64,000 bases of DNA from Anaerolineae bacterium (GCA_027021705.1 JALUTT010000176.1:13247-77246), one strand, 5' to 3'. Counted from the first letter of the stretch, positions 34,873 to 45,643 are shown. The notes: generated by a model from the sequence alone, not told the origin. A program made the numbers and translations.

Positions 34873-37212
34873 ATGAAAGCCATATCCAAACTCTACGCGC
34901 TGACCGCCCTGATCCTGGTGCTCAGCGTCGTGCTGACGGCTTGCGGTGGTGGGGCGACCCCCACGAAAGCCCCTCAACCGACCAAGCCGCCGGCGGAGAA
35001 ACCCACCAAAGCGCCGACCGAAGCACCAATGGAGAAGCCGACGGAGGCGCCGGCGAAGAGGGAGATCGGCAAGATCACCGTTGGTACCAACGCCGAGTAC
35101 CCGCCCTTCGAGTTCGTGGACGAGAGCGGCAACATCGTCGGCTTCGACATTGACCTGATGAAGGCCATTGCCGAGGCGGCGGGCTTCGAGGTCGAGTTCG
35201 TCAACACCCGCTGGGACGGCATCTTCGTCGCCCTGGCCTCCGGCGAATTCGACGCGGTCATCTCGGCGGCGACCATCACCGAGGAGCGCAAGCAGACCGT
35301 TGACTTCTCCGATCCCTACTTCAACGCCGGTCAGATCATCGCGGTCCGCGCCGACAACACCGACATCAAGGGACCGGAGGACCTGGACGGCAAGGTGGTC
35401 GGTGTGCAGCAGGGCACCACGGGCGACATCTGGGTCACCGAGAACACCAAGGCCGAGGTCAAGCGCTATGATGAGATCACCCTCGCCTTCCAGGCCCTGG
35501 CCAACGGCGATGTGGACGCCGTGGTCAACGATGCGCCCACCTCTGCCGACATCATCAAGGCCAACCCGGAGATGAACCTGAAGCTCGTGGGCGAGCCCTT
35601 CACCGAGGAACTCTACGGCATCGCCGTGCGCAAGGACTTCCCCGAGCTGCTGGAGGCCATCAACAAGGGATTGGCCGAGGTGAAGGCCAGCGGCAAGTAC
35701 GACGAGATCTACAACAAGTGGTTCGGCCTGCCGGAGGTGGAGGAGAAGCCGGCCGAGGCGATGGCCGAGACCATCATCATCGGCACCACCGACAAGGTGA
35801 CCGACCTTGACCCGGCCAACTCCTACGACTTCCACACCTGGGAGATCCATCACAACACGATGGACACCCTGCTCCACTACATCCCCGGCACCACCGACCT
35901 GGAGCCCGGCCTGGCCAAGGACTTCCCCGAGGTGAGCGACGACGGGCTGGAGTACACCTTCCGTCTCAAAGAAGGGCTCAAGTTCCCCGATGGCACCCCC
36001 TTCAACGCCGAAGCGGTGAAGTGGTCCATTGATCGGGTGATGGCCCTGGGCGGCGATCCCAACTGGCTGGTGACCAGCTTCGTGGACCGCGTCGAGGTGG
36101 TGGACGAGTACACCGTCAAGTTCGTCCTCAAGCAGCCGGTCAACTACTTCCCGCTGCTGGTGGCCACTCAGCCCTACGCCCCCGTCAGCCCCAACTGCTA
36201 TCCCGAGGACCGGTTCGACTCGGACAGCACCTGCGGCGGCATCGGCCCCTACCTCATCACCAAGTGGGAGCGGGACGTGGAGCTGGACCTGACGGCCAAC
36301 CCCGACTACCCCGGCCCGGCCCCCAAGACCAAGAACATCATCGTCAAGTACTTCGCCGATGCCACGACGATGCGGCTGGCGCTGGAGAACGGCGAGATTG
36401 ACATCGCCACCAAGACCCTCAACCCCACCGACTACGAGGACCTGCGCCAGAACCCCGACTTCCAGGTGATCGAAGGGCCTGGTGCGCAGATCCGCTACCT
36501 CTGCTTCAACCACACCATTGCGCCCTTCGACAACCCGCTGGTCCGCCAGGCCATCGCCTACGCGGTGGATCGGGACGCGGTGGCCAACAAGGCTTTCCTG
36601 GGCACCCACCAGCCGCTCTACTCGATGGTCCCGATGGGGATGTGGTCCCACATTGATGCCTTCCCCAAGCGCGACATCGAGAAGGCCAAGGAGTTGCTCC
36701 AGGAGGCCGGCTACAGCGCCGACAACCCGCTGGAGATTGACCTCTGGTGGACCCCCACCCACTACGGGGACACGGAGGCCGATGTGGCCGCCGTCATCAA
36801 GGAGGCCCTGGAGGAGACGGGGATGATCAAGGTCAACCTCCAGAGCGCCGAGTGGGCCACCTATGTGGACCAGTTCGGCTCGATGGGCTTCTACCTGCTG
36901 GGGTGGTACCCCGACTACCTGGATCCCGACAACTACACCACCCCCTTCGCCGACTCCGAGGCCTCTAAGGACATCGGCATCTTCTACGCCAGCGAGGAGA
37001 TGGATGCCTTGCTGAAGGCGGAGCAGGCGGCCACCGATCTGCGCGGTGCAGAGCGAGAGCAGATCTTCAAGGACATCCAGGAGCTGTGGGCCAAGGACAT
37101 CCCCACCATCCCGCTGACCCAGGGGACGCTCCTGGTCGCGGCTCAGAAGGACGTGAAGGGCATCGTCCTCGACACCAATATGCTCTTCCACTACTTCCTG
37201 GTCTACAAGTAG
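34873..37212 (+). CDS. Fused ABC substrate-binding lipoprotein: family 3 (polar amino acid) + family 5 (peptide/nickel)
   Basis: Lipobox LTAC; aa ~67-285 GTNAEYPPFE...TITEER...YNKWFG; aa ~300-779 DLDPA...YTFRLKEGLKFPDGTPFNAEAV...VRQAIAYAVDR. Confidence 0.93.
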   Translation: MKAISKLYALTALILVLSVVLTACGGGATPTKAPQPTKPPAEKPTKAPTEAPMEKPTEAPAKREIGKITVGTNAEYPPFEFVDESGNIVGFDIDLMKAIAEAAGFEVEFVNTRWDGIFVALASGEFDAVISAATITEERKQTVDFSDPYFNAGQIIAVRADNTDIKGPEDLDGKVVGVQQGTTGDIWVTENTKAEVKRYDEITLAFQALANGDVDAVVNDAPTSADIIKANPEMNLKLVGEPFTEELYGIAVRKDFPELLEAINKGLAEVKASGKYDEIYNKWFGLPEVEEKPAEAMAETIIIGTTDKVTDLDPANSYDFHTWEIHHNTMDTLLHYIPGTTDLEPGLAKDFPEVSDDGLEYTFRLKEGLKFPDGTPFNAEAVKWSIDRVMALGGDPNWLVTSFVDRVEVVDEYTVKFVLKQPVNYFPLLVATQPYAPVSPNCYPEDRFDSDSTCGGIGPYLITKWERDVELDLTANPDYPGPAPKTKNIIVKYFADATTMRLALENGEIDIATKTLNPTDYEDLRQNPDFQVIEGPGAQIRYLCFNHTIAPFDNPLVRQAIAYAVDRDAVANKAFLGTHQPLYSMVPMGMWSHIDAFPKRDIEKAKELLQEAGYSADNPLEIDLWWTPTHYGDTEADVAAVIKEALEETGMIKVNLQSAEWATYVDQFGSMGFYLLGWYPDYLDPDNYTTPFADSEASKDIGIFYASEEMDALLKAEQAATDLRGAEREQIFKDIQELWAKDIPTIPLTQGTLLVAAQKDVKGIVLDTNMLFHYFLVYK

Positions 37213-37258
37213 GCGAGCCCATTGCGCCCGTCTGGGTCGCTCTCATCGCAGTCAACCG

Positions 37259-37290
37259 CCAGGGGCGGGTCACCGGCCCGCCCCTGGTTT
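37259..37290 (+). terminator. Strong hairpin after the SBP gene (terminator or mRNA stabiliser)
   Basis: CCAGGGGCGGG-loop-CCCGCCCCTGG followed by TTT. Confidence 0.6.
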
Positions 37291-37295
37291 ATGCT

Positions 37296-37337
37296 CCCTC
37301 CCGCAGGTCACGCGGGTGGATGAGACCTGCGAGAGGG
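37296..37337. repeat. Minimal hairpin of the CCCTCCCGCAGG repeat family
   Basis: CCCTCCCGCAGGTC...GACCTGCGAGAGGG. Confidence 0.75.
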
Positions 37338-43951: not shown

Positions 43952-44032
43952 AGGCACGACAGCGCTCCCGGTTCGTCCTGGGACCACCATCCGTATCCCC
44001 CCTTCCCATGCTCAACGCAGAGGTGAGAGGCC

Positions 44033-44887
44033 ATGACCGTTCGAGAGGGAACCCGCCCCAAGTCCGTCGGAGGCGCGCTGGTAGATTGGCTGGCCGAAGT
44101 CCCCTGGTGGGTGGTCATCATCATTGTGCTGATCACCCTCTTCGTGGGCAGAATTCTCACCAGCCCCCAGGAACGGGAGCTCTACTGGAAAGCCCTCCAG
44201 TTCGTCACCGCCTGCCCTCAGGGGCAGGAGACCTGCGCCGTGTGGGACCGCATCGGGGTGATGCTCACCCTCAAGGCGACGGTGGTGGGCTATGCGCTGG
44301 CCCTGGTGCTGGGCCTGATCGGGGGGCTCTTCCGGGTCTCCAAGAACCCCGTCACCTACGCCATCTCCACCCTCTACGTTGAGGTGGTGCGGGGCATCCC
44401 CCTGCTGGTTATCATTATGTACGCCGGTTACGTCATCACGCCGGCCCTACGCGATGCCACCAACCAGCAAGTGGACCTACGGGGCTTCCCCTCGGCGGTG
44501 CTGGGGCTGGCCTTTGGCTACGGAGCCTACCTGGCCGAGGTCTTCCGGGCCGGCATTGAGTCCATCCCCAAGGGCCAGATGGAAGCCGCCCGCTCCTTGG
44601 GGATGAGCTACCCCCAGGCGATGCGCTACGTCATCCTCCCGCAGGCGATCCGGGTTATCCTGCCTCCTCTGGGCAACAACTTCATCGCCATGCTCAAGGA
44701 CTCCTCCCTCATCTCCGTCATCGCCCTGCCCGACCTGCTCCAGCAGGGACGGCTCTTCGTCTCCCGCACCTTTCGGGCCTTCGAAGGGTACAACACGGTG
44801 GCCCTGCTCTACCTCCTGATGACCTTGATCTTGTCCATCATCGTCCGCCTGATCGAGCGGAAGTCGGCGTTGCCAGGGCGCTTGTGA
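44033..44887 (+). CDS. Polar amino acid ABC permease (HisM/GlnP family)
   Basis: YVEVVRGIPLLV, AYLAEVFRAGIESIPKGQMEAARSLG, LKDSSL. Confidence 0.95.
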   Translation: MTVREGTRPKSVGGALVDWLAEVPWWVVIIIVLITLFVGRILTSPQERELYWKALQFVTACPQGQETCAVWDRIGVMLTLKATVVGYALALVLGLIGGLFRVSKNPVTYAISTLYVEVVRGIPLLVIIMYAGYVITPALRDATNQQVDLRGFPSAVLGLAFGYGAYLAEVFRAGIESIPKGQMEAARSLGMSYPQAMRYVILPQAIRVILPPLGNNFIAMLKDSSLISVIALPDLLQQGRLFVSRTFRAFEGYNTVALLYLLMTLILSIIVRLIERKSALPGRL

Positions 44888-44905
44888 GGATAGGAGGGCT
44901 GTGCA

Positions 44906-45643
44906 ATGGGCAAGCAACCGATCATCATCCTTCGGGACGTGCACAAGCACTTCGGTCACGTCCACGCCCTGCGAGGGGTAGACCTAGACGTCTATCCCGG
45001 TGAGGTCGTGGTGGTCATCGGTCCCAGCGGGTCGGGCAAGAGCACGATGTTGCGCTGCATCAACCGGCTGGAGACCATTGACCAAGGCTACATCGAGGTG
45101 GACGGCATCCCCCTGGACCAGGCGAAGAACATCAACAAGGTGCGGGCCGAGATCGGGATGGTCTTCCAGCTCTTCAACCTCTTCCCCCACCTGACCGCCC
45201 TGGAGAACGTGATGCTGGCCCAACGGGTGGTCCGCAAACGCTCCCCTGAGGAAGCGGAGGCCAAGGCACGGGAACTGCTGGCCCGGGTGGGGATTCCCGA
45301 GAAGGCGAACAGCTATCCGGCCCAGCTCTCCGGCGGCCAGCAGCAGCGGGTGGCCATCGCACGGGCCCTGGCGATGGACCCCAAGATCATGCTTTTCGAC
45401 GAGCCCACCTCGGCCCTCGACCCGGAGATGATCAAAGAGGTGCTGGACGTGATGCTGGACCTGGCCCGCGAGGGGATGACGATGGTCGTTGTCTCCCACG
45501 AGATGGGCTTCGCCAAGGCAGCGGCGGACCGGATCGTCTTTATGGATGAAGGGCAGATCGTCGAAGAGACGACGCCGGAGGAACTCTTCACCGCCCCCAA
45601 GCACCCACGCACCCAGGAGTTCCTGAGCAAGATCCTTCACTGA
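44906..45643 (+). CDS. glnQ: Polar amino acid ABC ATPase (GlnQ family)
   Basis: [42 protein letters not shown]. Confidence 0.93.

Follow-up and report, generated by a model that had tools for sequence, protein, structure and literature searches.

A two-domain binding lipoprotein that probably serves both a peptide-type and a polar-amino-acid ABC importer in an Anaerolineae bacterium

We analysed a window of 64,000 nucleotides (nt) of DNA from an Anaerolineae bacterium (GCA_027021705.1, JALUTT010000176.1:13247-77246; one strand, numbered from its first letter), within which a single gene encodes a 779-residue lipoprotein that joins a substrate-binding domain of family 3 to one of family 5. The gene is followed by dppBCDF, and then by genes for a HisM/GlnP-type permease and a GlnQ-type ATPase, which together would specify two ATP-binding cassette (ABC) importers. 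Comparison of related loci suggests that, from this one lipoprotein, the family-3 domain feeds HisM/GlnQ and the family-5 domain feeds DppBCDF, a reading to which we assign a probability of about 0.78.

The HisM/GlnQ pair accompanies the family-3 domain in related loci

The original prediction held that dppBCDF is followed by a permease and ATPase pair that lacks a binding-protein gene of its own, and gene order and Pfam matches agree with this. No binding-protein gene for HisM/GlnQ was found among the open reading frames (ORFs) and Pfam matches between 43466 and 46592, the 284-residue HisM-type permease carries no SBP_bac_3 domain, and the N-terminal half of the lipoprotein is the sole family-3 domain of the cluster.

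Proteins of the window were mapped onto 160 related loci, half taken from species genomes and half from metagenomes (80 each). Exact duplicates were excluded from the counts, as was L106, which is 100% identical and represents the window's own contig. Loci were scored as positive when a family-3 domain or gene lay before the family-5 domain, DppF was present and at least 2500 nt were available beyond DppF; negative loci lacked a family-3 domain and showed 900 nt or more of upstream sequence, with the same downstream length as the positives. All nine of the initial qualifying loci with a family-3 domain or gene had HisM and GlnQ behind DppF; L017 and L098, whose sequences differ by only 11 nt, then count as one. 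The pair is also present at L095 and L102, which were at first set aside because shorter loci duplicate them exactly. Altogether HisM and GlnQ follow DppBCDF in 10/10 distinct loci with a family-3 domain, whether fused or encoded by an adjacent gene, against 0/44 loci that lack one, among which near-copies may remain. Where the locus was truncated upstream, the pair was seen in one case out of ten (L026, which is cut within the binding-protein gene).

The association also holds when shared ancestry is taken into account. On a tree of family-5 domains, the presence of HisM/GlnQ follows the family-3 state in 7/7 phylogenetically independent contrasts (sign test, p 0.016). Moreover, across the ten loci the identity of the family-3 domain to that of the window rises and falls with the identity of HisM (rho 0.90) and of GlnQ (rho 0.90); the corresponding values for the family-5 domain are 0.11 with HisM and -0.10 with GlnQ. 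Elsewhere in the genome of the window, HisM-type permeases are confined to C181, beside a family-3 gene and an ATPase of their own.

We considered whether the family-3 domain might be a passenger, for example a spacer or an adhesin-like element, or the input of a sensor, while a free family-3 protein serves HisM/GlnQ in trans. Two family-3 proteins encoded elsewhere in the genome lie away from any polar-amino-acid permease, and either could be such a partner: one of 276 residues (C59:16680-17354, L171), next to two response regulators, and one of 800 residues on C55 (L172:7046-9448) with two family-3 domains preceded by about 300 residues of unknown nature. Family-3 domains are, in addition, known from signalling proteins (PMC8050422). 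However, HisM/GlnQ is present wherever, and only where, the locus itself has a family-3 domain or gene, by the counts and contrasts given above, and both proteins co-diverge with that domain. The family-3 gene of the unfused loci encodes an ordinary exported binding protein, and the position of the C59 gene beside response regulators also speaks against a role in trans. We consider the passenger reading quite improbable.

The C59 and C55 proteins nevertheless weigh against assigning the family-3 domain to HisM/GlnQ, and there are further points on that side for the assignment of both domains. The co-occurrence is drawn from contigs of relatives in metagenomes and metagenome-assembled genomes (MAGs), of which seven contrasts are independent; every specific NCBIfam model scores under its cut-off, for the ligand types of both domains; and an accessory gene breaks up the dpp genes in the window.

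Two complete binding domains on one lipid anchor

The translated lipoprotein begins with MKAISKLYALTALILVLSVVLTAC, and export, lipid anchoring at Cys24 and retention at the surface are likely. Beyond the signal peptide, no membrane domain was found in the protein by Pfam. An AlphaFold2 model was built from 23 input sequences and has a mean pLDDT (predicted local distance difference test) of 79.8. Segments with values below 50 include residues 21-62, corresponding to the tether, residues 287-297, corresponding to the linker, and two short loops at residues 679-691 and 697-703. The linker, of about 12 residues, is predicted to be disordered, and both its length and its sequence differ between aligned homologues.

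The family-3 domain matches SBP_bac_3 (PF00497) at residues 68-285 (E 1e-48; 164.9 bits, cut-off 26.4), covering profile positions 1-131 of 132. In a search of the PDB, residues 10-232 of the 233 of AncQR (4zv1) were aligned to it (E 9e-67), and it also matched a binding domain of GlnPQ (6h30, E 1.5e-64), ArtJ (2pvu) and GlnBP (1ggg). Block means of pLDDT are about 76-96 over residues 63-286 which, together with the 4zv1 alignment, indicates that the two-lobe fold is complete.

The family-5 domain matches SBP_bac_5 (PF00496) at residues 343-698 (E 8e-94; 315.2 bits, cut-off 32.4). It aligns with DppA (1dpp) in normal chain order, residues 32-473 of the query corresponding to residues 35-500 of the chain, and likewise with GsiB/YliB (1uqw) and 5u4o. 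A Foldseek comparison of the modelled domain with whole chains of the DppA type gave target-normalised TM-scores of 0.80-0.84 over about 510 columns. Pfam and these end-to-end alignments to solved proteins thus uphold the initial description of a 779-residue lipoprotein with complete domains of both families. Judged from the model, the protein is best described as beads on a string: two complete receptor domains joined by a flexible linker and carried on one lipid anchor.

The fusion is genuine and recurrent

Assembly or gene calling may erroneously join two adjacent genes, and related loci in which the family-3 and family-5 proteins are encoded by unfused neighbouring genes (L034, L072 and L176) would fit such an error. 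A read check of the junction near 35730-35770 had been recommended, and this region is bridged by a contig of run X2 (record 10), which comes from a different study than the possible source run; the contig spans 35495-35870 with one difference from the window. Contigs of runs X3 and X4 end at 35669 and 35702, short of the junction, and one contig of run X1, the possible source run, matches 34532-43446 with zero differences and is not independent evidence. A separately deposited MAG encodes a full-length protein of 779 residues that is 96% identical (P0002). PF00497 and PF00496 occur together in 73 of the best 120 protein clusters, the dual-domain clusters being 51-96% identical to the query and mostly metagenomic, with those that are named assigned to Chloroflexi or Anaerolineae. 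With at least 22 other genomes that have an uninterrupted match through both domains, an error of this kind has practically no probability, and we conclude that the fusion is real and not limited to this genome.

Sequence matches indicate that the double-receptor design is common in the Anaerolineae class. At least 23 of 151 sampled class genomes, counting that of the window, show a single unbroken match over both domains, and at least 29 more have a family-3 match within an open frame of at least 750 residues; the one of these 29 that was examined (G084/L177) again encodes a family-3 plus family-5 protein. The design would thus extend to about one-sixth to one-third of the sampled genomes. 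Where the sources name the matching proteins, they call them peptide/nickel or generic ABC-transporter binding proteins, and these current names hide the amino-acid receptor and leave the permease/ATPase pair apparently orphaned.

Likely ligand classes

Residues R139, T134 and T136 of the family-3 domain are invariant across 23 homologues. As in HisJ and GlnBP, they may contact the alpha-carboxylate and alpha-amino groups of the ligand. The NCBIfam LAO model (TIGR01096) gives 214.9 bits, under its cut-off of 256. The closest solved relatives make a polar amino acid of the Arg/Lys/Gln type the likely ligand.

The solved proteins closest to the family-5 domain bind dipeptides, glutathione, nickel chelates or opines, and the domain matches the NCBIfam Dpp, Gsi, HbpA and Nik models, all under their cut-offs. 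A di-/oligopeptide-like ligand of the Dpp/Gsi/HbpA type is likely.

A narrower hint, that the downstream cyclodeaminase and proline dehydrogenase genes point to substrates related to Arg, Orn or Pro, is not supported. The ornithine-cyclodeaminase-family (OCD) enzyme and proline dehydrogenase are encoded at none of the related loci, and we rejected them as a guide to substrate because no related locus conserves them.

Two receptors and two translocators

A tether of about 38 residues and a linker of about 12 would allow each domain to reach the membrane. The family-3 domain would capture a polar amino acid and dock on a dimer of HisM driven by GlnQ, the single permease presumably working as a homodimer, and the family-5 domain would capture a di-/oligopeptide-like ligand and dock on DppBC energised by DppDF. 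The fusion may have arisen when neighbouring genes for two binding proteins were joined within an uptake super-operon and the second export signal was lost. In a cell whose receptors are tethered at its surface, the probable gain would be a single anchor, a fixed 1:1 dosage and co-localisation, and not new transport chemistry.

A stronger proposal is that the double receptor physically couples DppBCDF and HisM/GlnQ, with their uptakes co-regulated or components shared between them. The covalent link does keep the receptors within a few nanometres of each other, one operon among the relatives (L177) has both permease sets and one ATPase gene, and the first extracellular loop of DppC resembles half a family-3 protein (34% identity to the family-3 domain over 92 residues, E 5e-11, BLASTP). 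However, the window encodes separate ATPases for each translocator, and the DppC loop is common to relatives with and without a fused receptor. The fused state has changed at least nine times on the family-5 tree, which fits loosely coupled modules, and PMC8025302 describes the linked substrate-binding domains (SBDs) of GlnPQ as working independently. Coupling of the two importers therefore appears unlikely. The prediction of a shared bifunctional receptor that couples peptide and free amino acid uptake is accordingly supported as far as sharing is concerned, by the 10/10 versus 0/44 loci, the 7/7 contrasts and the rho of 0.90, whereas on coupling the evidence favours two independent receptors that share one anchor.

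Gain and loss of binding domains around the family-5 receptor

The two halves of the lipoprotein are found in several arrangements. At L034, L072 and L176 the separate family-3 and family-5 genes lie ahead of DppBCDF and HisM, and at L034 each of the two unfused proteins has its own signal peptide. The fused family-3 plus family-5 form is present in the window and at L017, L032, L043, L048, L075, L079, L095, L102 and L105. On the family-5 tree (FastTree, 133 rows) the sister group of the window domain (support 98) consists of 12 relatives, 11 of them scored as unfused and one cut upstream, and the family-3 state has undergone at least 9-10 changes. These many changes indicate that the fusion is evolutionarily labile, with each added domain accompanied by its translocator genes.

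Other families are also joined to the same receptor. A triple protein of at least 1088 residues, Peripla_BP_6 plus family 3 plus family 5, is encoded immediately after LivHMGF at L076, and the protein search returned clusters of about 1230-1244 residues that combine family 8, family 3 and family 5. A metagenome scan with one triple protein (P0044) found no triple-fusion locus, and the family-8 part was seen solely as stand-alone genes. A Bmp domain is fused to the same conserved family-5 domain at L052, L053, L056 and L096 and in six clusters, a Liv-type domain alone is fused to family 5 in P0085, and a family-1/8 piece in P0090. The only Bmp loci with enough upstream DNA, L096 and L053, both have a divergently oriented double ATPase of Bmp type and two BPD_transp_2 permeases, a set found at 0 of about 145 other loci, and the Bmp state changes at least three times on the tree. 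Since the same family-5 receptor recurs in double, triple and Bmp-fused forms, it can be regarded as a recurrent fusion hub.

It is possible, as a tentative extension and one that we would sooner doubt than accept, that the Dpp-type receptor is the hub of modular multi-receptor lipoproteins throughout the Anaerolineae class, in which at least four families (3, Bmp, Liv-type and 1/8) have been repeatedly fused and lost, always beside the cognate translocator. Such a chain would gather importers into one surface uptake patch, and a single ATPase would be shared in a paralogous lineage.

Several other arrangements were observed at these loci. At L096 a Bmp domain is fused straight to a BPD_transp_2 permease (1568-3766, minus strand), adjoining the Bmp plus family-5 lipoprotein. 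Tandem genes for fused family-3 plus family-5 lipoproteins lie at L079:7862-13115 and L100:2481-7534, the first of each pair a divergent paralogue and the second of the conserved type. The paralogous operon at L177 (784-6975, minus strand) encodes a family-3 plus family-5 protein of 796 residues together with DppB, DppC and a HisM-like permease; its sole ATPase is GlnQ-like, and DppD/F are absent. The family-5 profile match of the fused protein is split, starting at profile position 66, and may represent a permuted type; among these loci this permuted-looking type is limited to the paralogues of L079, L100 and L177. One further candidate for a family-3 plus family-5 protein, G066/L174, was rejected on account of a different architecture: from a genome of the window's family, it is a protein of 1365 residues (L174:3066-7163, minus strand) with a family-5 domain ahead of beta-helix and GH43-like regions.

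The permeases of the relatives also carry large added domains outside the cytoplasm. DppB has a Reg_prop beta-propeller at L017, L026 and L043 and an SH3_3 domain at L034 and L079, and HisM has an N-terminal WD40 propeller at L017, L043, L079 and L102 and a loop domain of about 170 residues at L026, L095 and L105.

Relation to described systems

A textbook ABC importer has one binding protein, or tandem binding domains of the same family, per translocator. In the window, one polypeptide would carry receptors from distinct structural families, each for a translocator of its own. Full-text literature and reviews of substrate-binding proteins yielded no binding protein that joins different families or serves two translocators, subscription journals lying outside this coverage. 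The design is apparently undescribed in print, as had been supposed, and is built from ordinary parts.

E. coli GlnHPQ has one permease gene. Single-permease importers of polar amino acids of this type resemble the window in pairing a single gene for a HisM/GlnP-type permease with a single gene for a GlnQ-type ATPase, but the window has no separate binding-protein gene and the receptor is instead the N-terminal domain of the Dpp receptor. With E. coli DppABCDF (1dpp; cryo-EM structure 8z1z) the window shares the DppA fold (target-normalised TM-score 0.81), the chain order and the gene order B-C-D-F. DppA is, however, a free periplasmic protein of a single domain, whereas the family-5 domain of the window is the C-terminal half of a lipoprotein, and the DppC of the window has an extra loop domain. 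Because identity to DppA is only about 25%, it is uncertain whether the ligand is the same.

The closest described system is GlnPQ of Lactococcus lactis (6h30; PMC8025302), which likewise has two complete binding domains of different specificity in one polypeptide. Both linkers are short and flexible, with 14 residues between SBD1 and SBD2 of GlnPQ and a comparable length of about 12 in the window protein. Both domains of GlnPQ belong to family 3, whereas the window protein combines families 3 and 5, and the SBDs of GlnPQ are fused to the permease of one translocator, whereas those of the window are on a lipid anchor with two translocators encoded.

The series of fused, adjacent and unfused genes offers a natural Rosetta stone for pairing binding proteins with translocators, and provides natural examples of the limits of tolerance when heterologous binding domains are chained. 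It also raises the question of whether receptors tethered at the surface draw distinct importers together into shared patches.

Gene neighbourhood

The features of the lipoprotein and of the genes around it are listed in Table 1. DppB, DppC, DppD and DppF are encoded by four intact ORFs, with the ATPase_2/Mrr_cat gene parting dppC from dppD. The HisM-type permease scores 68.2 bits with TIGR01726 (HEQRo_perm_3TM), above the cut-off of 42.2, and about 153 bits with each of the GlnP and TcyL models, under their cut-offs.

Table 1. Features of the double lipoprotein and of the surrounding genes, in window coordinates.
Feature	Coordinates	Strand	Basis
Promoter-like site TTGACT-17-TATACT, about 270 nt 5' of the lipoprotein gene	34578-34606	+	Consensus scan, weak
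Double substrate-binding lipoprotein gene, 779 residues	34873-37212	+	Single ORF, no internal stop
Signal peptide, lipobox LTAC (Cys24)	34873-34944	+	Translation; Cys24 conserved in 90% or more of 23 aligned homologues
Pro/Thr/Ala/Lys-rich tether, residues 25-62	34945-35058	+	Sequence; AlphaFold2 pLDDT under 50 for residues 21-62
Family-3 (cluster F-like) amino-acid-binding domain, residues 63-286	35059-35730	+	PF00497, PDB matches, AlphaFold2
Interdomain linker, residues 287-299	35731-35769	+	AlphaFold2 pLDDT below 50 at 287-297
Family-5 (DppA/GsiB/HbpA-like, cluster C) domain, residues 300-779 and stop codon	35770-37212	+	PF00496, PDB, Foldseek
DppB-type permease	37351-38376	+	BPD_transp_1 and BPD_transp_1_N; DppB, GsiC and Opp2B models under equivalog cut-offs
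DppC-type permease	38414-39592	+	OppC_N and BPD_transp_1
DppC first extracellular loop, like lobe 2 of a family-3 binding protein	38630-38911	+	BLASTP
ATPase_2, HVO_A0114-like and Mrr_cat nuclease gene, 553 residues	39760-41421	+	Pfam
DppD-type ATPase	41489-42469	+	ABC_tran and oligo_HPY
DppF-type ATPase	42473-43465	+	ABC_tran and oligo_HPY
Coiled-coil ORF, 156 residues, coding status doubtful	43481-43951	+	All Pfam matches under gathering scores
HisM/GlnP-type polar-amino-acid permease, 284 residues, single gene	44033-44887	+	BPD_transp_1
GlnQ-type ATPase	44906-45643	+	ABC_tran; GlnQ model 338.6 bits, equivalog cut-off 379
ORF of 312 residues, weak Rpn-nuclease/transposase-like match	45654-46592	+	32 bits, cut-off 52
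Ornithine-cyclodeaminase-family (OCD) enzyme	46704-47699	+	
Proline dehydrogenase ORF, overlapping the end of the OCD gene	47554-48684	+	

The original list of genes was correct for the transporter genes but overlooked two ORFs, the 553-residue ATPase_2/Mrr_cat gene and the 156-residue coiled-coil ORF. The former is present in contigs of runs X1 and X4 and absent from those of X2 and X3, in which position 39754 is joined to 41479 with five other letters between them, indicating a presence/absence polymorphism inside the transport operon (39755-41478). It was found at none of the related loci, and on this comparison it is an accessory insertion that would stand outside the transport system. For this gene PADLOC gave no more than weak matches, with PDC-S27 at 34.5 bits. 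For the 156-residue ORF no homologue was seen in the related loci, and its coding status is doubtful because the near-identical X2 contig has gaps of 1-2 nt at 43503-43552 and, following 43652, an insert of 21 nt.

The consensus scan for promoters returned three sites against 1.2 expected in shuffled sequence, which is weak evidence only. A second promoter-like site lies at 39685-39713, just 5' of the ATPase_2/Mrr_cat gene. No leader RNA was found over 33000-47000 with Rfam at E up to 0.1, apart from a single sub-threshold match to sucA-II.

Beyond glnQ, the 312-residue Rpn-like ORF stands between this gene and those for the OCD-family enzyme and proline dehydrogenase. In the relatives, the genes after glnQ encode an aminotransferase, a pyridoxal phosphate (PLP) enzyme, a DNA methylase or a nuclease.

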